Of a DNA stretch of 64,000 nt, positions 15,715 through 53,586 are shown piece after piece (the first letter of the stretch is position 1; each line of letters starts with the position of its first letter). Position numbers and translations under genes: made by a program. Below the pieces are notes generated by a model. The model saw only the letters and a program-made list of their open reading frames with translations, was not told the origin of the DNA and did not search any database. The DNA comes from Octopus sinensis. Taxonomy: Eukaryota. The stretch spans positions 75,640,001 to 75,704,000 of the forward strand of contig NC_043006.1 in assembly GCF_006345805.1 (NCBI RefSeq), in the 5' to 3' direction.

Positions 15715-16097
15715 AAATAGGGAAAATGAGAATGGTATAGATTAATGAAATGACGACATAGAGGACAGGAGTAAAGGAATAAGATGAAGAAAGAGAAGAA
15801 AAGAAGAAGCATAACAATTCACAGTTCAACTTTCCGATCTAGTAGAAATAAATCCATAAGTACTTAGGTGCAATCCTGTGTAAATGCATGTGGATTAAAA
15901 TCCTGGTGTTGCAAACATCCAGAAAGAAGACGCGAACATATCAACGTTCAATAACAGAATGGTAGCGGAGGTAGCTATTAAATGGTAAAAAGAAAGAAGA
16001 GTAAATAAATAGGAAGAGAGTAGATCGACGAGGGGAGGAGTTAAGGATTGGCGTTAAGGATAACGTAAGGTATATAAACATATAGTCTAAGAATATC

Positions 16098-16328
16098 TAT
16101 TTCTTTACTACCCACAAGGGGCTAAACACAGAGGGGACAAACAAGGGCAGACAAACGGATTAAGTCGATTATATCGACCCCACTGCGTAGCTGGTACTTA
16201 TTTAATCGACCCCGAAATGATGAAAGGCAAAGTCGATCTCGGCGGAATTCGAACTCAGAACGTAACGGCAGACGAAATACAGCTAAACATTTCGCCCGGT
16301 GTGCTAACGATCTTGCCAGCTCCCCGCC
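16098..16328 (-). mobile_element. SINE family A monomer
   Basis: The reverse complement matches family A from head to tail. Confidence 0.9.
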
Positions 16329-16615
16329 AGCCGAGAAGATAAGAGAGAGGGGGAGGAGGTAGAAGATAACGTAAAAAGAATAAACAAAATAGAGCAAAAC
16401 GAAAGGAATTTAAAGAGAGTAGTAGGTGCCTGTGGTATTCTTCTAGTCTATAGGGGTTGGGGAGGGAATTTAATAGTTAATACTTGTGTCCTTTCTGGCT
16501 CAGGTCAGTGGCCGTAGAGTTATTTTTAGCAATGGGGTTATGGGTGTGTATGTAATCGTTGAATGTTAAATTATTTAGTAGTAGGAGTTAGAATGAAATA
16601 TTAGGGGATTTTTTT

Positions 16616-16824
16616 ACTCTTTTACTTGTTTCAGTCATGTTAGAGCATCACCTTTAGTCGAGCAAATAGACTCCAGGACTTATTCATTGTAAGCCTAGTA
16701 CTTATTCTATTGGTCTCTTTTGCCGAACCGCTAAGTTACGGGGACGTAAACACACCATCATCGGTTGTCAAGCGATGTTGAAGTGACAAACACAGACGCA
16801 CAAACATATGCACATAATACATAC

Positions 16825-16855
<31 letters not shown>

Positions 16856-17210
16856 ATAATAAAATATTAGCGAATAAATCCAAATTTACAGGGAAAAATC
16901 AGATTTATAGTAAACTATTATATTTATTAAATTAGAGATAAAACCACATTAGGCAAATCATACAATGAAAAACTCAGCCAATACATAAGATTAGTTAATT
17001 TATATTATTTTAATATAATCAAAATTATTAAAAAAAGATAATTAGTATAACACTACGATCGTTTCATGGCTGTCCAATTCTTAAAATTTCGGGTTACAGT
17101 CATTCTTCAGGTGATTTAAATATTTAACTTAGCGAGGTTTAATCATATATACGACGGGCTTCTTTCAGTTTCTGTCTACCAAATCCACTCGCAACCACTC
17201 CTACGCTCCA
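16616..17210 (-). mobile_element. SINE family B with a hammerhead-bearing insert (16860-17145) in its internal microsatellite
   Basis: Tail at 16616-16810, resuming at ATATACGACGGGCTTC (~17147). Confidence 0.8.
17051..17113 (-). ncRNA. Type I hammerhead ribozyme motif
   Basis: CAC-CUGAAGA-[AUGACUGU...ACAGCCAU]-GAAAC-GAUC-GUA-GUG. Confidence 0.8.
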
Positions 17211-18377
17211 ATTTTTAAACCATAACTCCTACTTGGTTATGGTTTAAAAATAAATTAAAGAATTAATATTTATCTTATAGAGTGATGAGGTAAGGTTGAT
17301 AGAAGAGATATAGAGGGTTATGTGTTGATGATCATGGAGATTTATATGTAGGTGTTATTCGTGAGGGGGGAATTTACATTTAGATTTATGAAAGAATTTA
17401 AAAGTGCAGAAGAATTTGTGGTTACACGTTGTGATGGCTACGTTGTACTTATTAAGCAATTGCGGTGAGTTATGGGTTAACATTGTAATGGCTTCTTTTA
17501 AGCAGAGTCCACAAATGCAGTGCTGGCCGTGATATGGGAGTCTATTATAACCCAGGAAAGTCTATATTGTATTTTTCTATTAATTAGATGGTGTGCGTGG
17601 CTGGCTTGTGATGTGGAACTGCTATTCTCTTTATGTTTAAACGAGTTTAAACGTGCATAATATCTTTGTTTAAAATTTGTAGTAGATCCAAAGTAGTAGC
17701 TATAGAAGTTATTTACTATGTTGTGAACGGTGCATTTGTATACGACGTTGAATCTTCTGCACTGGGTTTGCAGCGAGAAGTCTGCCCCAGATCTGTAGTT
17801 GCAGCTATCAGTTCTACGATGGTTTATTGGAGAGAGAGAGATGAGGTAGTACTATAAGAAATAAGCAAAGCAAATGGAAATTTACAAAAGAAAACGATTA
17901 CCTACGTATCATGATTTCATTCTTAATACTTTCAAAAATGCAAATAAAGCATCTGTAAATCCTCAGCGTAGTCTGTCGTATTACAAAACATATTTTACAG
18001 AACTATGCACAGAAACGTTTTCCCGAAAGAAAACTAATATACAGTTCTACAAAATATATTTGTGGTATTTTTCAAATGCCTTCACCTTAGCGCGCTAGTG
18101 CCGGAAAACAACCCTGCAGGTAATAAATTACCGCAGTAAATTCACCGGTTTGAGAACATTGCTATTTTAAATTAAAATACTGAGGGTAGAAATTGATACC
18201 AATCAATTAACATCAATTTAAACCAGTGGTCTAGCACAGTTGTAACTCTATATTTACAACTATGGTGTTGTTGGTACAACATGTTCTTTGTCTATCTCCT
18301 TAACTTCTCGGAGATTTTAAGTAAAATTATATTAATGTGTCCTTCTGTTCTAATTTAATTAAATTATATGTCTTTGT

Positions 18378-18467
18378 GCAGCTGAAGATTACACTATATT
18401 TTAAATTGATGTAATGAAATGATTGCATTGTTCAAGTAAATGGAGTTGCATGAAACGATCGTACTGC
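18378..18467 (+). ncRNA. Type I hammerhead ribozyme motif in a (TA)n-adjacent element (~18120-18505)
   Basis: GCAG-CUGAAGA-[long imperfect stem II]-GAAAC-GAUC-GUA-CUGC. Confidence 0.75.
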
Positions 18468-18499
18468 ATTACCTCTGGATATCCTTGTTGCTTATTTTG

Positions 18500-18576
<77 letters not shown>

Positions 18577-20535
18577 TGTGGTGTGTGTGTGGTGTGGGTG
18601 ATGGAAGTAAGACACGTATATTTTGGAGTCGCTTATTTGACGCACTAACTTTTTTAACATCAGTCATTTTAATGTTTCACTCGTTCTTTTCTACCTTCTC
18701 TTTCTCTCTTTGCTACGCATTCAATGTATGTAGCTATCACTTACCGTCGTTCACTCTCTCTATCTGTATGTGTATATATTTCTCCGCATAGATTCGTGAG
18801 TGTCTGTTCCTCTGTGTACGTACCTATGTGTGTATGTGTGTGTGTGCGTGCGTGCGTATTTGTGGGTGTGCGTTTACCTGTAACCCCAAATACATTGTAC
18901 TCAATACAGGTTAAATGTCTAGTCAGCCGTGTCAGATCCTCAACGTCTATAGAGCTGCTCTCACTCTTCTCATACCAATGGTAGAGCTAACCATCTTACT
19001 CGTCTGACCCTCTAACAGTTTACGAAACAACCACCCCGGACAGAGACTTTCTTTACACACCCAGAATGAGTCAATATAACCGTTTAACCTAGAACCTCAG
19101 ATTTCCGGTATTTTACCACTTTAAGAAATCTAAAGTAATTGTTTTATGTCATGTGTCGAATGATAAATAAAATCATTAGTCTTTAACTCAGCAAAATGAC
19201 TCATGTGGCTGATATGTTTTTTGTGGGGACATCGGTATGGAATTAGAATATGGAATGTATAGTATGTTCAAAACATTTACAATAGAAGTGAGATTCAACA
19301 AAAATCACTTACGTAGTCCAAACCTTAATTAGCATGTGAATATGATGTTGTGGTCATGGCTCGAAGGTCTTTGGTTTGAAACCCACTCGATTTGGGAAGA
19401 ACTGGGGTTTAAAGAACGAAGTGAAATAGAACAATCACGGTCTCGAATCGAAACCGTTTTGCTATTAGTTTAGCAGCTTTACGACGCTTGCCAGTTATGA
19501 AAAATCGTTGAGTGGTAGATTTTTGTAATTAGGGTGTTTCGGTCAATGACTTCGAATCAGAAAGGAAAATAAGGGTTATAACCAAAGGCGTACATAACAT
19601 TAAAAGACAAACAGCAAAATACAATCAAACAAAACAAAACATCGTTCACGAGTAAGGGAAAAGTGAAAGTAACACATGTTTTACGATTCCTTATTTTTCT
19701 TGCTGCCTTTTAATTACATATCGATTAATTTATCTAAAGGGAACGTGTAATTAAAAATTCTAATGAATGAAAATTAATTTGAATACTTTTGAAACACTCA
19801 TAAAGTTAACCAGAATGTTAAAGTTTGAGGAGTATATTTTTTGTTTTTCTTTTTTTACATGGAGACACTATTTGCCAATAACGCCTTGTGTTGTATCTGC
19901 TACTCTTTGAAGAAACTGTCAATAGATTAGAAGCAATAACCAAAGAATCGTTAGAGCCTCAAACAAAGTCCTTTACAGTCACCGGCTCTTCATCTTATAG
20001 GTTCAAGGCTCGCTGAGGTTAGATTCTTCTCCTATCTCTCAGGATTCGATGAAATAACGTACCAGTTAAATATTAAGATAAGGACAGCGTTGGAAAAATG
20101 CTAAGCTCTATTTCTTACGTCTCATTAAGTTCTGAGTTCAAATATTTTCGAAGTCAGCTTTGCCTTTCATCTCTCTGGGTTAGATAAATTCGACTTACTC
20201 CTCCTCCAAAATTGCTGGCCTTGTACCAAAATTTAAAACCATTATCATTGTTATTATTATTATTTATTATCCCTGACATCTCGTCAGACATGAACAAAAT
20301 CATCTTGCTCTGAGTTGTTTCGATGTTTCCCCAGGATAACGGACAAAAAGAAGTAATTTTAATTTTTCATTTTATTTCAAACAAGAACTTTTAGTGAATT
20401 AAACATTCCGGAAAGTGTACCCCTTTCTGGGATTCGTTAGCATGGTCGGTTTTAGAAATATTTTCACTTTTATTTTGCATGCAATGCTAAACCAGATGAA
20501 AAAACCCCTCAAAACATCTCAGACTCGTCAAATAT

Positions 20536-20764
20536 TACTCTTTTATTCTTTTACTTGTTTCAGTCATTTGACTGTGGCCATGCTGGAGCACCAGCTTTAG
20601 TCGAGCAAATCGACCCCAGGAAGTATTCTTTGTAAGTCTAGTACTATCGGTCTCTTTTGCCGAACCGCTAAGTTACGGAATGTAAACACACCAGCATCGG
20701 TTGTCAAGCGATGTTGGGGGGATGCAGACACACAAACACACACACCACACACACACATAATATA

Positions 20765-20796
<32 letters not shown>

Positions 20797-20972
20797 TATA
20801 TATATTATATAATATATATACATATATACGACGTCTACAAAATCCCCACTCACAGGCTTTGGTCGGCCCGAGGCTATAATAGAAGACACTTGCCCAAGGT
20901 GCCACGCAGTGGAATGACCCGGAACCATGTGGTTCGTAAGCAAGCTACTTACCACACAGCCACTTCAACGCC
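20536..20972 (-). mobile_element. SINE family B, full length
   Basis: The reverse complement matches family B. Confidence 0.9.
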
Positions 20973-22132
20973 TGTAAACTTAGCAAAACATCCTTCAAAC
21001 AGTATAAAATGCAAACATGGAAAATTATATCAATGAACAAAGTAAATGGTTCAGAACGAAAACAATAACACTCCAACAGTGTTATAAAACATTTTTGACA
21101 ACCGTGTACCTGCACATACACTAGATCAAAAATGACTATGAACAATGAGTAGTTATCCTCATTGTTCGAACAAAAATACACTCGATATGAACTGTTATGC
21201 TGCACGAACGAAACCTGTGTCACAATTTGTGTGCAGTATAGGGGCCAGCACACACAATGCACCACAGCTTCATATTTTGCGCTTCATATTTTAAATTCTC
21301 CAATAATGTATTGTATATCGTCTTTCACGCTCTTCTCGTATTTATACAAGGATTCCGCTCTTCCCCAAGTCTCTTTATAAACCAACCCGATCTGTTTAAT
21401 ATTATTTCGTAGACTTTTGTACCCATTTGAGCTCCTACAACTAATAAATCATCATCATCATCATCATTATCGTCGTCGTCGTCGTCGTCATTATTATTGT
21501 TACTGTTATTCATTTGAGGTTTATAGATGTGGCTTATTTAAGAAAGACATCAACATTCTCCCCTTCCGCGCTTGCAAATTATATAATGATATATTGTCTG
21601 GCATATCTTCAGGCCAATATTTACTATGGAAGAACCTGTCTGCAACGTTTAACATTTCTCATATCATTTGTTCTTTTATGGTATATTCCCAATTCCTATT
21701 CTTCTTGTCTCGTTGTCATTTACTTTACAGATGCAGCAATCCAATATTACATATAACAAGATGAACATTATCCTTATTTTCTATCGGGATTTAAATTAAT
21801 AGCGAGGAATGTACAATTACTCGGCATCTCAAAGCCTTTGTGAATGCTATCGTAGTCATCCGGCTTTTGTATGCTGATTATAAATGTACGGATGTCCAGT
21901 CTGTCACGTATAATTGTATCAGACGTTTAACTCGTTGACGAGGTAATGACCCATAGGACAATGTTGAATAGTCATTTACCCGAGGTGAATTGTTGCCCTT
22001 ATAGTACATCGTACTAATTCGTCTTAGGCAAGTTGAAAACAAGCTGATGCATGTCATGTGAGTTTCAATCTGTGAGTTTGTGTATGTGTGCAAGCGCGGA
22101 TGTCAATGTGTATGTGTGTGCGTGCATGCATG

Positions 22133-22325
22133 CCAGCACGCCTGGCAAAATACTTAGCGTCATTTCGTCTGTTTTTTCGTTCCGAGTTCAAATTCCGCCG
22201 AGGTCGACTTTCTTTTTCATCACTTCAAGGTCGATAAAAAAGTATCAGTTGAGTACTGGGGTCGATGTAATCGACTTACCCACACCTCCGAAATTGCTGG
22301 CCTTGTGCCAAAATTCGAAGCCAAT
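22133..22325 (+). mobile_element. SINE A-related copy with alternative tail
   Basis: GAGTTCAAATTCCGCCGAGGTCGACTTT...TGGCCTTGTGCCAAAATTCGAAGCCA. Confidence 0.8.
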
Positions 22326-22445
22326 ACTCCTGTCTGCTGGGACATGTTTTCACAGAAATTCGAAATGCATGGTACCATTTGTACGACGGTGCATTGGTTT
22401 ATAACTATAGCGCAATGTCATCAAGAGAATGAAAAACATGCGTGC

Positions 22446-22631
22446 ACATATATACGACAGGTTTCTTTTAGTTTCCAAGAGCAAAATCCACTTTTAAGCC
22501 ATTGGTAAGCCAAAGGCCAAGTAGAAGACACCTGCTGCCCAAGATGCCGCACAGTGTAACTGAACCTGAAACCACATGGTTAGGAAGGAAACACTTTAAC
22601 CACAGCTATGCTTGCACCTTATATATATATA

Positions 22632-22668
<37 letters not shown>

Positions 22669-22800
22669 ATATGTCTCGCGTGTCCCCCAACCATCGCTTC
22701 ACAACCAATGCTAGTGTTTACGGTCCGTGACTTAGCGGTTCGTCAGAAGAGAACGATAGAATAAGTACTAAGCTTTAAACGAATGAGTCTTGGAGTCGAA
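22446..22800. mobile_element. SINE B head (-) and SINE B tail (+) on either side of (TA)n
   Basis: 22446-22618 is the reverse complement of the head. 22680-22800 is the forward tail. Confidence 0.7.
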
Positions 22801-23227
22801 ATCACTTCTTTAACTTTCTAAGGCATCTCAACGCTTCTAAAGCGTTGTTTACGTTCATCGTAATTTGAATATACATACATACAAACATACATACATACAT
22901 ACATACATAGATACATGCATGCATGCATGCACGCACACACATCGTAATCGACTCTGGTATCCATAAGCATTGAAAGTAAACAAGATTACGATATCGGGAG
23001 ACGAATAGAAATAAGGCGAAGGATAATCTCAAATGATGAAGCATATACGCGATTTCGTAAGCTTGATTGCCTTCAGTGCTTGTGGATATCCGAGTTGCCT
23101 TTGACTCTTCTTTTCAGCAAAGCTGTGCACCCGCAAGTATATTTGCCTTTTTTTTCTTTTGCTAATAGCCACCGATATTGTTATTTTTTGTTAATGATAT
23201 CCCCATTACTTATAATTATATATATAT

Positions 23228-23962
23228 ATGAGTGATGATGCCTCTTTCCAAGTGCACATTACCAGGATGGCGACAAAGTGCAGAAGTCTGGCTGGTTGGA
23301 TCCTAAGAACATTCAGAACCAGAGATAAGGAAACCATGATGGTCCTCTGGCGCACATTCGTCCTCAGCCGCCTGGATTACTGCTCACAGCTATGGTCACC
23401 CAACAGTGTGACATTAACTGCGAACCTAGAAGCAATTCAGAGAAGATTCACAAAGATCGCCTCTTTGCAACAGCTCAGCTACTGGGAAAGGTTGAAAAAG
23501 CTAAGAGTCTACTCCCTGGAGAGAAGACGGGAGAGGTTTGCAGTAATATATATTTGGAAGATCCTGGAAGGAATTTTGCCAAATTTTAGCATTGAAAGCT
23601 ACACGAATGCCAGAACGGGACGACACTTCATAGTGCCAAAGATCCCAGCAATGCCATCACGCTTCAGGACCAGTTACTGCAACAGCCTAGGTTTCAAGGG
23701 CCCACAGCTTTTTAATATTCTCCCAATGAGTCTGAGGAACTTGCACAAAGTAGATGTATAGATTTTTAAATCAAAGCTGGACCTCTTCCTGTCGAGAGTC
23801 TCAGATGAGCCAACCTCACAGCAAGAGGTGCAAATGAGGGTAGCTATATCAAACTTCATTCTTCACCAAGTGCCACATATTAGAGGTGCTTCGTAATAAC
23901 AGTGTAGCAAAACGGCGGTGCATCAGCATGGCCGCAGCTCTGAGCTGAAACTAGAGAAAAAA
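23228..23962 (+). mobile_element. CR1-group LINE 3' fragment (RT C-terminal region plus 3' UTR)
   Basis: GWILRTF..VLSRLDYCSQLWSP..LEAIQRRFTK..SYWERLKKLRVYSLERRRER..GPQLFNILP. An in-frame stop at 23759 is followed by FKSKLDLFLSRVSDEP. Confidence 0.9.
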
Positions 23963-23964
23963 TA

Positions 23965-24210
23965 TTCTCTTTTATTTCTTTCAGTTATTAGACTGCGGCC
24001 ATTCCGGAGTACCGCTTTGAAGAATTCCAATCGAATGAATTGATATCACTACTTATTTTTGAAGCCTGTCGCTCTCTTTTTCTGAACTACTAAGTTATAT
24101 GGTCATTAACATATCGATACGAGTGGCCAAGCGGCAGGACGCGCAAACACACGCACGCACCTATACGATGAGCTTCTTTTTGTTTTCCTCTTTAAAATCC
24201 ATTCATAAGG
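23965..24210 (-). mobile_element. Degenerate SINE B
   Basis: Reverse complement of the tail (GACTGCGGCCATTCCGGAGTACCGC) and body. Confidence 0.65.
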
Positions 24211-25086
24211 CATTAGAACTGTCGTTCTTATAATTCAGTTAACGCACTCCCCTATCTTGGTTTGACTGATTTTGATCGAAACCTAAAGAATGAATGATAA
24301 AACTGTCCACGGCGGAGTTTGAAATTAGAGCTCGGTGACCAGGAACAACTACAGGGAAACCATTTTTCCGATGCTTTATCGATTCTCCTATCTTCCCATC
24401 ATTGAGAATTAAACAGCAAAATGTCAACCATTAAATACCGTAATATTTTATTTTCGAATAACAAAGAAAAAAAGCAAACAATTGCTGTGGAAAAGGATAT
24501 ATATTGATGAGAAAAGAATGAGAATGATCCTAAGAAGACATCACATGAATTCAAAGAAGACAAGAGAATATGTAGTGAGAATATGAAACGCTTAAAAGTG
24601 TTTACACAAGCAATATATCGTGTCTTTCCGTTCTCCATCCAATATTAGCACCACACATAACGTGCCTACTTTTAATGCTATTATTTTTCGTTGTTGCTTT
24701 TAACATTCACTTTAGCCGTTGAGAATGTCCGCTTGTTGCCATAATTTAGTTTTGGCAATTGTAAATGATTTATTGTCTTTAGGTGATTTCATACATCTCA
24801 AGTATAACAGTAAGCAGGTTAGAAACTTGAGAGGTAATTTGCACCATTAATAATCACTTTTTACATCGTTTCATGACACTCGTTAAGTTACTTGACATCC
24901 TCTTTTATTCAAATGTACTGTATCAGCGTTCGTGATGTATTGTATACGATGTGACTGTATGACAGATATATGAAAGGTTTATGTAATAAATACATTAGAA
25001 TAATGTGCAGAAAATAATATTTAATGCCAATTTATATACATACATACACACACGCACATATACATATATATATACGTATACATATA

Positions 25087-25138
<52 letters not shown>

Positions 25139-25896
25139 ATATAGATATATATGTGTGTGTGTGTGTGTGTGTGGTGTGTGTGTGTGTGTGTGTGTATATA
25201 TAGATATGTGTGTGTGTGCATGCATGTATGTATGTATGTATGTATGTGTATGTATATATGTATCTATCTTTCTCTCTCTCTCCCTATATATATATATACA
25301 CACACATACACATAAATATATGTATATAAAGCGCATATGTATATATTATATATATACATATGTGTATATGTATATCATATATAAATATACACACATGTGT
25401 ATATATATGTATATATCATATGTATATATGTATGTATGGTGTGTGTACACACAGATACACACACACGCACATATGTAAATGTATGTATGTATGGTATGTA
25501 TGTATGTATATATTATATATATATATATATCATATATATATATATATATATATAAAGAAGAAAGTGAGTCGAAGAGAGAGAGAATGAGGGAGGGAGAGAG
25601 AGAAAGACAGATAATAGAGGGAGAGGGAGAGAAAAAGAAAGGGAGATGTTTGTTGATCGATTTCAATGATGAGGTTGTAGTTGTTCAATCAAATGAGTTA
25701 CTTTCTCTTTCAATAGAAGTGGCTGAGCTTTCCACTGTCGCATGTACTTTTAAACACTATTCACAGACAGCGTAAGCCTCATACGATATCTGACTAGTCG
25801 CAAGCTGTACATGGGGGCAATTGCTCTAGGTGCCATGCAGTGGGTTTCGAAGCGGGCGTGTTAATTAGTTGTCGACCCACACGAACACACACACAC

Positions 25897-25936
<40 letters not shown>

Positions 25937-25980
25937 CACACGCACACACACACTCACACACACAGATACACGCATACACA

Positions 25981-26286
25981 TAAGGCCACTAATATTTTAA
26001 CGTAAAATAATTAACGTTTGGTTAAATTTTTCAAAATTAAGCGCGCAGACCAGCAACTAATTATAAGAAAAAATAAAATATTTCCTTCTTTTTGTATTTT
26101 TTTCTATTGTTGTCACAAGTGGGTTAACATTATACACTAAATACCAGGGCGCAGGAGATTGACGCACATGCATAGGAATATGTATACGTATGTATTCTTA
26201 TAAGTATATAGGTATGTATGTATATAGATATGTATATATATTTATAGATGCATATTTCCATATGCATATCTCTATATGTTTATGTG

Positions 26287-26337
<51 letters not shown>

Positions 26338-26585
26338 GGGAGTATCACTCCTAATGGTTTTATCTCTAATTTATATTTCATATATATATATATATGTTTT
26401 TATGTTTTCATTTCTCATTGTGTTCAAAGTTTTTTATGTCCCGTACCCATAAATTCATGTATATATGCATATATATGTAAGTCTGTACATATATGTATGT
26501 ATACATGCATATATTTATATATTATTTATATTATTATATGATCGAACGCCACGCATCCTTTTCCAAGTAAGTTTCATCTTATACA

Positions 26586-26633
<48 letters not shown>

Positions 26634-27073
26634 CACATAAATACATATACATACATACATACAGACAGACATACAGACATATATACATACATATATATAC
26701 ACGCATGTATGTATATGTGTGTGTATGTATGTGTATATATGTATATACATACACGCTCGTGCAGATCTTTCTATCTCTCCCTCCCACCCCCCCACTCACC
26801 CCCCATATATATTTATTTATATATGTATATATATATTCACAGGCACTCAGACAAATATACATAAATGTCTGTATGGTGGCGGGTGGGGGTGTATGTGTGT
26901 ACGTGACCATATAGACAAGAGAGAAATATAGCTTTACACCAACACACTCCAATAAATTATAAATTTATAAGAGATAACTTCCTGATCAGTTGCTTTGAAA
27001 CTTATTACACCGAAGGAGCGCGGGCACGCACACAAACACATGTAGTCACATACATATACACACACATACGCAT

Positions 27074-27109
<36 letters not shown>

Positions 27110-27507
27110 TCATTCATTCAGATTCCATCACTTACATTTCGTATTTTTTTTCTTTATAATTGAAGTGATTTTAAGATGTTTAGATTGAGGAATTGAATAA
27201 ATCTATTAACAGTGGCGCTGCTATATATAGAAAGAAAGAAGGAAAGGAAGGAAAGAAGGAAAGAAAGGAAGAAAGAGTGCGTGAAAAACACACATAGAAA
27301 AGAGGGGAAAGTGTGGGCGAAGTTGCTCAACGATCAGAACAAGATCAAAGGTAAACTTTAAACAATTTCGATAAAACAACCATGTGATATTTTTCATGCT
27401 TAATTATTTTTTTGCTCTGTCAGTAATAAACCGAAATGTTTTAATGTTTTCATCTAATTCAGATTTAATGTTAAGCCATTTGTGCCAGCAATTAAATAAT
27501 AATAATG

Positions 27508-27576
<69 letters not shown>

Positions 27577-27703
27577 AATACGAAAAGAAGGCAAATATTT
27601 AAAATATTTTTTCTTGTAATTAATTGGTGGTCTGCGTGCTTAATGTTGAAAAGTTTAACAAAACACTAATTAACCATTTCTTGCTGAAAAATAAGTAGCC
27701 TTA
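25981..27703. repeat. Long-range diverged inverted repeat (arms 25981-26098 and 27577-27703)
   Basis: TTAAGCGCGCAGACCAGCAACTAATTATAAGAAAAAATA pairs with TATTTTTTCTTGTAATTAATTGGTGGTCTGCGTGCTTAA. Pairing extends out to TAAGGC / GCCTTA termini. Confidence 0.8.
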
Positions 27704-27782
27704 ATTTGTTCAGGTTACAACGTAGTTTGCTAATATATGCAAATGCGTGCATATACATATACGTATAAATATAAATCGAAGT

Positions 27783-28125
27783 CGGGAGAGGTATACAGTA
27801 ATATACATCTGGAAGGTACTGGAAAAAGATTGTGTCAAATTTTGGTATTGACAGCTACACAAATACCAGAATGGGTCGCCACAGCACAGTGTCAAAGATA
27901 CCAGCAATGCCGTCGCACTTCAGGACCAGTTACTGCCACAGCCTGGGTTTCAGGGGCCCACAGTTTTATTAAAATTCTCCCAAACAGCATGAGGGAGGTT
28001 CGGCAAAAGCGACCGATAGAATAAGTATTAGGCTTCCAAAGAATAAGTCCTGGGATTGATTTGCTTGACTAAAGGTGGTGCTCCGACATGGCCACAGTCA
28101 AATGACTGAATCAAGTAAAAGAGTA
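27783..28125 (+). mobile_element. CR1-group LINE fragment fused directly to SINE B 3' half
   Basis: 27783-27996 is colinear with 23528-23737, then GGTTCGGCAAAAGCGACCGATAG...GACTGAATCAAGTAAAAGAG follows. Confidence 0.85.
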
Positions 28126-28156
28126 ATATATATATATATATACATATTATTATATA

Positions 28157-28412
28157 TCGTCGGCCCCACCTCGTATACGAGCATTGGGCTCGTTAGTTTC
28201 TATCCAGTCTCCTCGGCTGATCTTTATACCGAATGTGACTTTGCGATCCAAGTCGGTGGTGAAAAAGTCATGGGCAGAATTAGTACGGGTCGAGAATGTT
28301 GAAGATGCTCCTTTCTTCTGCGTTTTACCTCGTCATTCTGTTGTCTGTTATGCTCGAAGTAGTTGGTTCCATTGGAGATAGCTGTCCTCAAGGCTGTCTC
28401 ATCCATGGCCAT
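28157..28412 (-). mobile_element. RTE-type LINE extreme 3' fragment between (TA)n tracts
   Basis: [34 protein letters not shown] resembles the AxDRxxWRxxIxxGxxxFExxR..KRxRRK RTE C-terminus. Confidence 0.6.
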
Positions 28413-28591
28413 ATATATGTATATATATATATATATTATATATTCATATATATATACATATATATATATATATACACATATATATATGGCCATATGTTTA
28501 CATATATATGTATAAAAGTATATAGATATGTATATATATATATGTGTATATATGTTTGTATACATATATATGTGTATATATATATTATACA

Positions 28592-30443
28592 TATAACGGG
28601 AAGCTTTATGAAAATAAACAAAAGACGAAGGCAGGTGGAAACAACGAACAATTGTATTAGTATGGCGCTCAGGAAATATAAATAAAAAAGTCTTTAACGT
28701 TTCGAGCCTACGCTCTTCAACAGAAAGATACACAGAGAGAGAAAAACACAGAAAGAAGGAGAGAAAAAATGCGTGCAGTAGCTAACGAATCAACATGGCC
28801 ATCTGATTTCGGCCAGAGTCAAAGATCAAACAGGAGACGCGAGGAAATAGCGAAAAATAAGATAAATGGTTGATAAAAGGGTTGAGGGACCAGCTAATAG
28901 TGCGTAGGAGGGGTCTGGATGTGTGTATGTATAGGGTTGGTGTATGTATTAGTAGTATAAAGGGGGTGTGTTTGTATGAGAGAGTATTCGTGCGTAGGAT
29001 TGGTCTGGACGTGCGTATGTATGGGGTTGGTGTATGATTAGTATGTATTAGTATGTATTAGTACGTATTGGTATGTATAGTGTGTGTGTGTGTGTATGAG
29101 AGAGTATAAGTGCGTATGCGGGGTCTGGACGTGTGTATTTATAGGGGTTGGGTTTGTGTATGTATTAGTATTACTAGTATGTTTAGTACGTATTAGTATG
29201 TATTAGTTGGTGTGTGTATTGTATGGCACATCATATGTGATGTGATGTGTAAGTCATGTGGTGTAGTGAGGAGAAGAGGGGAGGGAGAAAGAGGGCGGAG
29301 AGAATGGGAGGGGAAGAAGAGGGGAGGAGGGGGAGAGGAGAGGATGGGGGAGGAGGGGGATGAAGGAGGAAAGAGGGAGAGGGGGGAGAGAAGGGGAGAG
29401 AGGGAGTGAGGGAGCAGAGGGAAGGGGAAGAGGGAGGGAGGGAAGAGGGAAGAAGGGAAGGGGTAGGGGTGAAAGGATGAAGGACTGAAGAAATAGGGGT
29501 CGGGGGAAAAGGATAGGTGAGGAGGGGGAGAGGGGGGTTAGATGAGAGGGGGGGAGAGTTGAGACCAATGGCGTATATAGCGAAGAGAGAAGATATTAAT
29601 TCCTGTTCACGGGGCCAAACGGGAATCCGGATGGCCTCTGTTTAAGGACAAACCAAACACAGATAGGTGTTGCAATTGGAGTGACCGTGGTGAGCGGAAA
29701 TGCGTGAGCCGGTGTTCGTTCGCAAGGTGGATGTCACGAAGGTGTTCCGCGAACCGGTCAGCCAGCGGCGTCCCGTTTGTCCGATGTACAAGGAATGCAG
29801 AGAGAGCAAGAGATGCAATAGATAATATTGCTGGAGGTGCAGGTGAAGAGTGATGATGGGATAGGGTCGATGGTGGGTGCTAGTGAGGCGGGTGGTGTTT
29901 GGAGAGGTAAGGGCAGTGCGGCAACGTGGGCGGGAGCAGAGGAACGAGCCGGGTTGGGAGGTAGGGTCAGGGAAGGAGCTATGGACCAAAAGGTCTCGAA
30001 GTTGTGGGCTCGTTTGAAAGAGAGGGGAGGGGTCGGTTAGGGAAGAGGTGTGAAGTGGACGGGTCGGACTGGAGATGACTGAAAGCTCGAAGAATGGTGC
30101 GTTGGAGACGTAGGGTTCGTGGGGTGGTAGTGAGGGAAGAAAGGAGGCGGCGGGAGACTACAGGGCGGGTTCGGGGAGAGAGAGAGCAGATACACGGTCC
30201 ACGGACCGTGCTCTGGCAAAGGCGGTGTGGATAGTGGTGAGGGGGTATCCACGTAGGGTGAAGTGGTGAGCCATACTTTGAGACTGAGTCTCAAAGTCAT
30301 GGTCGTCACTACAGAGCCTACGTAGACGGAGGAATTGGGATAGGGAGTGGGGATGGAAAGCTTGGTGTGTTCTGGGTGGGAGGAAGAGAAGTTGAGGTAT
30401 GAGTGTGAGTCTGTGTGTTTGTAGTGAATGGAGGTGGTAAGAG
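28592..30443 (-). mobile_element. Penelope-like element, 5'-truncated (RT thumb, GIY-YIG, 3' region with hammerhead), flanked by (TA)n
   Basis: [69 protein letters not shown] (frameshifted). There is an internal ~100-bp triplication at 28899-29210. Confidence 0.9.
28691..28728 (-). ncRNA. Minimal hammerhead motif with CUGUUGA core variant
   Basis: UCUUU-CUGUUGA-A-GAGC-GUAG-GCUC-GAAAC-GUU-AAAGA. Confidence 0.7.
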
Positions 30444-30583
30444 TATATATATATATATATATATGTATATCTATATACATATACATGTAAATGTATACAT
30501 ATATATATGTAAATATATAGATATATATGTTTATTACGCATTACGCACACATATATATAATATGCATACACATATATATATGT

Positions 30584-30635
<52 letters not shown>

Positions 30636-30688
30636 TACATTTATAGATACACACGCACTAATATACACATACACACATACACACACAC

Positions 30689-30732
<44 letters not shown>

Positions 30733-30754
30733 TATATATATATATATATATATA

Positions 30755-31035
30755 TTGTACTGCTATTAGAACGAATATGCTCGAGGCACGTTCAAACTGG
30801 GAAACAAGTTACTCCCTGCGTTTTCTCTGCCTAGTGTTTGTAAGCGACGAGGAAATAACTACTCTGAAATTCTAGCATCTCACAGTGTAGTTATGTGTCA
30901 CCGCAAGCTGGTCTCAGTGTATACACACCATTTGTCAACAAACGGGATGTATTTTTCGTGACAAAACGCAGTGAATAGCTGGTTCCCCAGTTCGAACGTG
31001 CCTCAAGCATGTTCGAACTGATACTAACATTACAA
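30755..31035. repeat. Imperfect ~70-bp inverted repeat starting at a (TA)n tract
   Basis: CGAATATGCTCGAGGCACGTTCAAACTGGGAAAC pairs with GTTCCCCAGTTCGAACGTGCCTCAAGCATGTTCG. Confidence 0.75.
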
Positions 31036-42203: not shown

Positions 42204-42208
<5 letters not shown>

Positions 42209-42467
42209 TAGATTAGGGTATCTACGAGATACCACCATGCTGAAAATAGCAGCCATGATCTGACTTTAAAACCACCTAAATTTTCAATATATCAACACGG
42301 GAAAATTTAGGAGGGTTTTAAAGTCAGATCATGGCTGCTATTTTCAGCATGGTGGTATCTCGTATATACCCTAATTTATAATTTAATAATTATCACCTTT
42401 GAAGGTTATTTTTTCCATGCTGACCACTTGATAAAATCGTTATTTATTTTTAAATTAACGATCTTAT

Positions 42468-42471
<4 letters not shown>
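42204..42471. mobile_element. (TA)n-flanked fold-back element, ~82-bp arms with a 15-nt spacer plus unique tail
   Basis: 42204-42285 is the near-perfect reverse complement of 42301-42382. Confidence 0.85.
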
Positions 42472-42538
<67 letters not shown>

Positions 42539-42543
42539 TTATA

Positions 42544-42602
<59 letters not shown>

Positions 42603-42885
42603 AACAATTGAGGGTAAAATTAATTAGTTATTAATCAATTTCACCAAAGTAGTGTCCAGTATGTAAAAGGACCATTTAAGGCGAATTCAAAATATTACAT
42701 TATATAATTAGGGCTTAGTAAAATAAATTACTTTGCCACATACTGAACTTTCTAGAAATAGCAGCCAAAAGTTTTTTAGCCATTTCCACTACTTTAAGAA
42801 AATTTCTCTCAGATAATGTTTACTCAAAAATAACTCACGAAGATATGGAGGTAAAACAGTAAAATATCACAAGTACAAAGATCAT

Positions 42886-42947
42886 TTGAGAACGTCAACG
42901 TTTCTAGATTAGCCAAATAAAACTCAGCATTTCCTTCGTCAGCTCAA
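42886..42947 (-). ncRNA. Type I hammerhead motif (inverted copy)
   Basis: Reverse complement of 43503-43564. Confidence 0.75.
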
Positions 42948-43502
42948 CATTTCTTAATTTTGGATTTGAAAGCACTAAAAGAATGAACATACCCCTCCGG
43001 CAACGTATCACCTCAGACGAACACGCTCAGACTGCCAGTACTAGCAAATTCAAAATGTACAAGCGAAGATTCATGTTCTCTCCCCTAAGTAGTGGAAATG
43101 GCTAAAAAACTTTTTGGCTGCTATTTCTAGAAAGTTCAGTATGTGGCAAAGTAATTTATTTTACTAAGCCCTAATTATATAATGTAATATTTTGAATTCG
43201 CCTTAAATGGTCCTTTTACATACTGAACACTACTTTGGTGAAATTGATTAATAACTAATTAATTTTACCCTCAATTGTTGATATTATAATTCCTTTCTCT
43301 CTGTTCTATTGCTACGGTTCTCACCGTTAAAATATATGTTTACTAGATAACTCACGTGGGTGGAAGGGGAGAGAACATGAATCTTCGCTTGTACATTTTG
43401 AATTTGCTAGTACTGGCAGTCTGAGCGTGTTTCTTGAGGTGATACGTTGCCGGAGGGGTATGTTCATTCTTTTAGTGCTTTCAAATCCAAAATTAAGAAA
43501 TG

Positions 43503-43564
43503 TTGAGCTGACGAAGGAAATGCTGAGTTTTATTTGGCTAATCTAGAAACGTTGACGTTCTCAA
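43503..43564 (+). ncRNA. Type I hammerhead ribozyme motif
   Basis: UUGAG-CUGACGA-[AGGAAAUGCUGAG UUUUA UUUGGCUAAUCUA]-GAAACG-UUGA-CGUU-CUCAA. Confidence 0.75.
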
Positions 43565-43793
43565 TGATCTTTGTACTTGTGATATTTTACTGTTTTTACC
43601 TCCATATCTTCGTGAGTTATTTTTGAGTAACATATCTGAGAGAAATTTTCTTAAAGTAGTGGAAATGGCTAAAAAACTTTTTGCTGCTATTTCTAGAAAG
43701 TTCAGTATGTGGCAAAGTAATTTATTTTACTAAGCCCTAAATTTATATATATGTAATATTTTGTATATATAATATATATATATATATATATAC

Positions 43794-44418
43794 ATGATGC
43801 ATCCTTCCATGTGCATGTTGATAAGTTGGCAATGAAATGCAGGAGGCTGACCGAATGGAGTCTTAGAACCTTTAGAACGAGAGATCAGGAATCCATGATG
43901 GTCCCCTGGAGGACACTTGTTCTAAGCCGCTTTGACTATTGCTTCCACCTATGGCCACCAACCAGTGTAAAATTAATTACAGAACTTGAGGCAATCCAAC
44001 GAAGCTACACGAAGAGGATAGCCTCTATGCAGCATATAGCTACTGGGAATGACTCAAGAGATTACGATTCTATTCCTTAGAGCGTAGGCGGGAAAGATAT
44101 GCCATAATGTACACCTGGAAGACCCTAGAGGGACTTGTCCCAAACATTGGCATCGAGAACTACATTAATGCTAGAACAGGGCGCCACTGCATAGTTCCCA
44201 AAACTCCAAATTTACCATCAGGTGTAGGACAAGATATTGTAACAGCCTGAGCTTTAAAGGCCCACAGCTCTTCGATATCTCCTGAAGGACTTGAGAGACC
44301 TGTTACTGTCAAGTGTCCCAGATGAACCAACTCTGCAGCAGGAAGTGCAGATGAGCGCAGCGGCATCAAACTCCCTCATGCACCCAAACGTCAATTTCTA
44401 AAAAGAATTAGTGAAGTA
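43794..44418 (+). mobile_element. CR1-group LINE 3' fragment (same family as 23228)
   Basis: KCRRLTEWSLRTFRTRDQESMMVPWRTLVLSRFDYC..ELEAIQRSYTK, with frameshifts. Confidence 0.9.
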
Positions 44419-53004: not shown

Positions 53005-53057
53005 AAAAAATATAGAACGTTTCACGAATTTGCGTGTCATCCTTGTGCAAGGGCCAT
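53005..53057 (-). pseudogene. U6: U6 snRNA 3'-half pseudogene fragment
   Basis: ATGGCCCTTGCACAAGGATGACACGCAAATTCGTGAAACGTTCTATATTTTT differs from the canonical metazoan U6 3' half by 4 transitions. Confidence 0.92.
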
Positions 53058-53586
53058 CAACCACCTTCTTACACCCCAATTACCTCCGACAGTGCTCGTT
53101 CATAGATAGTCAATTTTATTCTTGTTTAAAGTTTATTCTTGTCACATCTAACCCTCCACATGCTACCTAGACACGTATGGGTCATCGTTATATGATACTC
53201 ATAAGGCTGGTGATGATGATGATGGTAGTGGTGGTGGTGGTGAAGATGATGATGATGATGATAAGGGCGATTATGTTGGATAATTATTGAAATTTGTTGG
53301 ACTTACTCGAAGTTGATTTAAATCACGACTGTTTAATATTTTAAATTCTATGTTCAATAGCAGTGATAGCGATGAGGGCGATGATGGTGAGCGTGATGGT
53401 TGTGGAGGTGGTCGTGATGACGATGATGATGATGGTGATGGTAACGGTGGTAATTGTGGCTGTGCTACAGCTACTGCTTCTGCTGGTAATAGTAGGGCTG
53501 GTGAAGATGTAGCGGTGGTAATGATGATAATGATGATGAGGGTGTGGCGATGGAGATGACGACACTAGTGATGCTGGTCATGCTGT

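Follow-up and report, generated by a model that had tools for sequence, protein, structure and literature searches.

Dispersed hammerhead repeats in Octopus sinensis that probably move as non-autonomous Penelope-like elements

Animal non-LTR retrozymes are non-coding tandem repeats that carry one type I hammerhead ribozyme per unit, have a low GC content and a self-paired predicted RNA, and coexist with autonomous Penelope-like elements (PMC7229834; bioRxiv 10.64898/2026.07.22.740005). Units of 170-400 nt were described in PMC7229834, where a circular-template model was also proposed, while a later study of vertebrate genomes argued for a Penelope origin of animal retrozymes, reported consensus lengths of 51-972 bp and saw terminal-repeat kinship to an autonomous element for 21 of 57 Xenopus families (bioRxiv 10.64898/2026.07.22.740005). 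As a rule, the non-autonomous elements described so far are similar to the ends of their partner (PMC8557442; bioRxiv 10.64898/2026.07.22.740005), and the mobilisation of animal retrozymes by Penelope-like enzymes has hitherto been a hypothesis drawn from co-occurrence and terminal-repeat similarity. Penelope-like elements themselves leave a footprint in which one end bears a tail of 30-40 bp and a 5'-truncated copy stands in inverted orientation, and a preference for (TA)n has been reported for those of the Hydra clade (PMC8557442). Work on the Anolis Poseidon element PAc places the tail between two internal reverse-transcription starts, with both target strands cut and extended and a dimer predicted (PMC11167929). 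For octopuses, the supplement of PMC8557442 lists Hydra-1_Obim, and the accessible sections of PMC8967140 mention Penelope expansions in general terms only. We found no literature report of cephalopod retrozymes, of a rule assigning one start site to each arm or of edited retrozyme RNA fixed in DNA, although the family described below may already sit in repeat libraries such as Repbase or Dfam.

The window analysed here is a 64,000-nt stretch of the Octopus sinensis genome (assembly GCF_006345805.1, contig NC_043006.1, positions 75,640,001 to 75,704,000, forward strand), and positions are counted from its first letter. It holds an insertion of about 1.2 direct units of 567 nt and a 486-nt inverted arm, flanked by (TA)n (Table 1), which is one of thousands of dispersed copies of a ~560-base non-coding hammerhead repeat. 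Judged by its sequence, this family fits the definition of a non-LTR retrozyme and appears to behave as a Penelope-like element of the non-autonomous type. Elements of this kind are already known, and the size is not new either: the initial annotation had regarded the monomer as unusually large, and units of 531-588 nt do exceed the 170-400 nt of PMC7229834 but fall inside the 51-972 bp of bioRxiv 10.64898/2026.07.22.740005. Unlike retrozymes, the octopus family has a hammerhead whose long stem II and mismatched base bring it nearer to Penelope-type variants, and it had no matching partner terminal repeat among the sampled loci; the accessible sections of the retrozyme reports mention neither such strict targeting of (TA)n nor termini fixed at two sites nor insertions with two arms.

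Three Penelope-like systems come close in other respects. Hydra-clade elements likewise insert into (TA)n, carry a hammerhead upstream of their 3' ends and leave, besides an inverted copy truncated at its 5' end, a tail at one end only (PMC8557442). The octopus family differs in lacking an ORF; its sequence matches none of the terminal repeats in the four Hydra-like families that we examined, and its tail measures 98 nt where 30-40 bp have been published. As proposed for our family, PAc has two starts downstream of its hammerhead that define the tail and cuts and extends both target strands at AT-rich DNA; unlike it, PAc is autonomous, with a short tail and start sites inside its ORF, and the sections of PMC11167929 available to us report neither a one-site-per-arm rule nor a template common to both arms. 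Finally, non-autonomous Chlamys elements such as MRC1, from green algae, share a non-coding, Penelope-derived make-up with pseudo-LTRs and insert as several copies head to tail, but their 3' ends resemble those of their autonomous families, a match that was not found here (PMC8557442).

Table 1. Parts of the hammerhead-bearing insertion, in window coordinates
Feature	Position	Strand	Basis
Left (TA)n target tract	42471..42599	.	Tandem Repeats Finder
Inverted arm; 5' truncation at monomer 279, 3' end at B within (TA)n	42593..43086	-	alignment, blast, arm classes
Type I hammerhead motif of inverted arm; core 42942, predicted cleavage triplet 42893-42891	42886..42947	-	
Complete 567-nt non-coding monomer (33% GC), (+) strand strongly self-paired	43087..43653	+	alignment, fold
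Hairpin and internal copy of terminus A; inferred reverse-transcription start site 1	43145..43190	+	sequence, fold, termini of other copies
AT-rich hairpin and internal terminus B; inferred start site 2	43237..43288	+	fold, termini of other copies
Type I hammerhead motif of full unit; predicted cleavage after GTT 43557-43559	43503..43564	+	
Partial second unit, terminus A (~43757) in (TA)n	43654..43766	+	alignment, arm classes
Right (TA)n target tract	43744..43792	.	Tandem Repeats Finder

Taking 43087-43653 as monomer positions 1-567, the direct body (43087-43766) comprises 1-567 followed by 1 to ~104-111. The 567-bp direct repeat named in the initial annotation is real, the sequence from 43087 returning at 43654, with the second unit present for ~104-111 nt only. 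The inverted copy said to precede it is also there: by alignment and blast, 42593/42601-43086 on the minus strand corresponds to monomer 279-567 and then 1-202. This arm does read through from the end of the monomer into its start as claimed, but the junction at 43087 is no boundary of the element. The family's fixed boundaries are its two 3' ends, A (monomer ~104) and B (~202), and 43087 is just the point at which this copy is inverted; the window copy ends in B at the left and in A at the right. Since the arms differ by just 2 substitutions and 8 short gaps, the insertion is young, as first proposed. Its placement inside (TA)n was likewise read correctly, and six-frame translation of the doubled monomer yielded no long open frame, in keeping with the claim that it holds no ORF of note. 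Contigs of two DNA and two presumed-RNA runs cover the family in short pieces, too short to bear on the layout of the window copy, on expression or on a circle.

We searched the 2.7-Gb genome with the monomer, as had been suggested, and recovered a dispersed family, with 150 matches from the 40 scored of 2,459 candidates. The octopus origin of this genome is borne out by one of its retroelement ORFs, to which proteins named from Octopus species are 66-87% identical. An exact 29-mer of the family matched 7,156 times (control 0), a degenerate core pattern 5,588 times (control 29) and the window's own 18-nt core 125 times. The 79 full units extracted (531-588 nt) form 8 clusters up to 26% apart, and as in retrozymes the non-coding units stand in tandem, in arrays of up to 4.6 units. 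A sister family has a 600-nt unit with its own hammerhead and ~70% identity to the window family in the 3' region. Its copies are mostly 97-100% identical and its arrays, which have A/B ends, reach ~14 units (L080:2735-3340; L323-L327), making it the best candidate for a currently active family.

Each unit carries one type I hammerhead motif, which agrees with the initial annotation and with retrozymes; the window has a second copy in the inverted arm. The motif of the full unit consists of the core CTGACGA at 43508, GAAA, a stem I of TTGAG/CTCAA, an extended stem II and a self-complementary stem III of 3 bp. An Rfam scan at gathering thresholds did not detect it, which is no evidence against a hammerhead as the motif is atypical: the first pair of its stem II is an A-A mismatch, and across the family this base is A-A, U-U or G-U. 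With such a stem II base and a 3-bp stem III the predicted ribozyme is weak on paper, and its self-cleavage would be plausible. In co-folding, two copies can pair via the self-complementary stem III, as described for Penelope-type and newt hammerheads (PMC4209133). The hammerhead descriptor matched 63 of the 79 full units; 14 of the 16 misses belong to a single U4C lineage and 2 are single lesions. In the U4C lineage a stem I pair goes from U-A through U-G to C-G, so that pairing is kept, and this change lowers activity in vitro yet is tolerated in a viroid (PMC3088659). Arrays at the U4C loci L166, L167, L173, L182 and L197 look longer, with 3-6 cores per locus, and cores of the U4C type are found in autonomous elements, too (L280, L303).

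The predicted RNA is highly self-paired, again as in retrozymes. For the linear window unit the hammerhead strand folds with a z-score of -7.4 (100 shuffles), and when 5 units were folded as circles the scores ran from -5.2 to -8.1 on this strand against -1.6 to -4.9 on the opposite one (15 shuffles each). Among 16 representative units, 97% of 127 structure pairs are kept, and 15 show a compensatory change compared with 6.7 in shuffles, a lenient control because the pair structure came from the same alignment. Hammerhead stems I-III are 98-100% paired.

The ends of the copies point to the way in which they were inserted. Copies end at A or at B, each directly after a hairpin and running into TA, while their 5' ends vary; the ~98 nt from A to B constitute the tail. 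Exact matches to the B-to-TA junction number 880 across the genome, and B is read through 1,979 times. We mapped the arms in 70 loci, namely 40 of ~46 clusters from the first 100 29-mer positions listed and 30 selected from loci found earlier, and found 50 adjacent inverted arm pairs: 43 A+B, 1 B+B, 0 A+A and 6 with one end unclassified. Thus 43 of the 44 classifiable two-armed insertions combine one A with one B end (binomial p 2.6e-12), which is the Penelope-like pattern of two alternative 3' ends, one at each end of the insertion, and 5' truncation, partial tandems and an inverted 5'-truncated copy complete this footprint. Hydra-like elements in the same genome pair their long and short ends likewise, in 5/5 two-armed copies of a first family (tail ~115-120 nt) and in 7/8 (one unclassified), 4/4 (tail ~70) and 5/5 (tail ~70) of others. 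Given the match to the published footprint and the same rule in local Hydra-like elements, the inverted head probably represents a second cDNA, whose synthesis was primed at the opposite end of the target, rather than a flip within one cDNA, and the strand inversion invoked in the initial annotation gives way to a standard Penelope-like two-armed insertion. In 13 of the 50 pairs (4.6 expected) the 5' ends of the two arms map to one monomer position to within 16 nt, often at hairpins, and we hypothesize that these shared positions may reflect how the two cDNAs are joined. A handful of 5' ends fall at monomer 474-485, but we dropped 5' ends at the cleavage site as a sign of cleavage, the distribution being broad and skewed to monomer 520-60.

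What served as template can be approached from the 123 arms with an A or B end. The cleavage site is crossed by 82 of them and passed twice in 27, and 53 are longer than one unit. A single reading of a cleaved linear monomer cannot produce such arms, and the suggestion that the template was longer than one linear monomer stands. We then compared variants among 65 of the 79 units (the three largest clusters minus three outlying units). In 58 of 59 cases a variant known from other loci was carried by every unit of the multi-unit locus concerned, and in the remaining one it was carried by some; private variants were carried by every unit 11 times and by part of the units 34 times. This clonality of inherited variants favours a single monomer, likely circular, as template. 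Within multi-unit loci, 36 of 50 units have their nearest relative in their own locus, also across arms, and 14 do not. Both arms of one insertion share private variants, and the predicted cleavage-site junction is clean in the units listed, with no scars of template jumping. A single monomer sequence is thus likely to have templated both arms, which would fit a circle.

We consider it probable from these sequence patterns that the dispersed family is a non-autonomous Penelope-like element, that is, a non-LTR retrozyme, likely templated by a circle and moved by an autonomous Penelope-like enzyme, probably of the Hydra type. The candidate cephalopod retrozyme of the initial annotation has accordingly become a non-coding hammerhead retroelement of octopus. 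In such a cycle, tandem transcripts would be cut by the hammerhead, probably as dimers, and the monomers ligated to circles. A reverse transcriptase-endonuclease, likely a dimer, would nick both strands of a TA tract, and two cDNAs would be initiated on a single RNA, one from A and the other from B. Both would run round the circle until they stopped, and the resulting 5'-truncated copies would then be joined head to head. For the window copy this would mean an A-primed cDNA of ~670 nt and a B-primed one of ~490 nt.

The most serious alternative retains mobilisation by a Penelope-like enzyme but assumes a linear template, either uncleaved read-through of arrays or end-to-end jumping on linear monomers, with arrays lengthened or homogenised after insertion and the hammerhead dispensable or serving another role. 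Uncleaved RNA is the main substrate of the Anolis enzyme, and hammerhead cleavage is not needed for its insertion in vitro (PMC11167929); 8 of 9 Xenopus retrozyme dimers did not cleave (bioRxiv 10.64898/2026.07.22.740005). A successful lineage of the octopus family bears U4C and amplifies well, and the 14 of 50 units not closest to their own locus also count against the circle. Young, homogeneous source arrays would give clonal daughters too, and unit subsets share private variants in some long arrays: in three long sister arrays such variants occur in several but not all units (6/9, 5/7, 3/9), a distribution that suggests assembly error, conversion or subsequent duplication and not a single pass of a circle. 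Against a linear template, arrays have gathered 34 unit-specific changes, yet just 1 of 59 inherited variants is confined to some units, so mixed source arrays were not copied as such. The clean cleavage-site junctions lack the scars that jumping would leave, and private variants common to both arms would not arise by later tandem expansion. On balance we regard a linear template as unlikely, though it deserves to be kept in mind.

An array of the sister family offers a further look at the template. In a two-armed insertion (L323-L324, G000:C6:55418100-55428060), four A>G changes on the hammerhead strand are present in all 15 units. One of these four variants has 33 matches genome-wide; 17 belong to that array, and the other 16 fall on a single unplaced contig that shares its flanks and junction. 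This contig (G000:C10246) holds two copies of the array with the same flanks and is likely a haplotig or assembly duplicate. A-to-I editing is extensive in cephalopods. In the sister family, A>G accounts for 5 of 6 clonal private changes (two loci) and for 2 of 31 single-unit changes, a skew that suggests A-to-I editing and is best taken as a lead; the window's own family shows no such excess (2/11).

It is very improbable that the copies are instead 5'-truncated remains, or pseudo-LTRs, of an autonomous Penelope-like element. This explanation would draw on the same insertion footprint, a similar hammerhead type and the many intact Penelope-like ORFs in the genome. Yet in the loci examined the upstream neighbour of a unit is another unit (up to 4.6 units, and ~14 in the sister family) and never the end of an ORF. 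Searches of 42+40+40 family loci, some overlapping, by tblastn with local Penelope proteins and by ORF scans found no continuity with a Penelope ORF, and the Penelope matches near family loci were neighbouring fragments set apart by TA or other flank. No reverse transcriptase and GIY-YIG ORF was found between repeats, and the join to a Penelope ORF that the initial annotation had named as its counter-case was seen in no locus examined. Two core pairs, 4.4 kb apart (C10) and 10 kb apart (C18), were considered as ORF-flanking repeats and rejected as duplicated short copies.

Possible helpers are nevertheless at hand. The genome has intact ORFs of 781 and 775 aa whose motifs suggest that they are Neptune-like. 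It also has at least four Hydra-like families (L259, L283, L303, L308), recognised by the motifs RWK, DKT, CxCx5C and CxxC/CxH given in PMC8557442; their ORFs are intact or long (650-990 aa), and they carry hammerheads and tails of 70-120 nt. All Neptune-like and Hydra-like families examined insert in TA. The tail of the Neptune-like 781-aa family is ~30 nt, and the octopus repeat shares both the (TA)n target and a long tail with the local Hydra-like families. A Hydra-type helper is therefore likely. Counting against the model, no autonomous partner with matching terminal repeats was found: the monomer had no match in the terminal repeats of ~190 ORF-bearing Neptune-like and Hydra-like loci (top-scoring families of 5,029-31,352 candidates). 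Monomer matches near the Neptune-like 781-aa and 775-aa ORFs and the four Hydra-like families proved to be separate TA-flanked insertions, so these gave no sequence-related partner, and a 653-nt repeat around one Neptune copy was rejected as a pseudo-LTR because it is unrelated flank. As separate observations on these elements, the Hydra-like clade gave 16,000-31,000 first-look candidates, suggesting very high abundance, and in one Hydra-like family simple repeats make up a 3' region of ~2.5-3.3 kb. A young Neptune-like family (L061-L064) combines its 781-aa reverse transcriptase-GIY-YIG ORF with an overlapping upstream frame of up to 479 aa, which is unusual for single-ORF Penelope-like elements.

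More tentatively, and with the balance still somewhat against it, a dimeric Hydra-type enzyme might start two cDNAs 98 nt apart on one circular ribozyme RNA, one for each nicked TA strand, roll round it up to ~14 times and fix its A-to-I edits in DNA. If this were true, twin-start reading would explain the Penelope puzzle of a tail plus an inverted copy, the insertions would be direct genomic evidence for rolling-circle retrozyme transposition, and the RNA would parasitise the enzyme via its shape and not via common sequence. The octopus insertions themselves bear the Penelope integration footprint thousands of times, and their near-absolute rule of one arm per start site limits the ways in which such elements can integrate. 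Because this genome offers intact Hydra-like ORFs alongside a very young sister family, the model of twin starts on a circular template can be put directly to the test in vitro.

It is scarcely credible that the element is a satellite or foldback repeat of the ordinary kind or that misassembly at a TA microsatellite created it: the region is AT-rich and repeat-dense, the short gaps between the arms resemble long-read errors and the layout of the window copy is known from the assembly alone, but thousands of dispersed copies have fixed ends, 43 other or same-type insertions at unrelated loci have the same asymmetric layout, and folding is strand-biased with compensatory changes.

The neighbourhood of the insertion contains other repeats. 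Adjoining it on the left, in the same TA tract, is a short two-armed insertion with one short and one long end (42205-42470), a distant relative of the monomer 3' region with an alignment score of 68 against a maximum of 49 in 300 shuffles. To the right of the TA tract, 43795-44400 is a broken coding remnant with a presumed resemblance to the 3' end of a LINE. Elsewhere in the window we noted a broken Hydra-like endonuclease remnant (17540-17830), hammerhead-bearing element ends of further families at 17110 (-), 18382 (+) and 8489 (-), and the 3' half of a U6 snRNA (Rfam) at 53006-53058 (-), probably a retroposed fragment.
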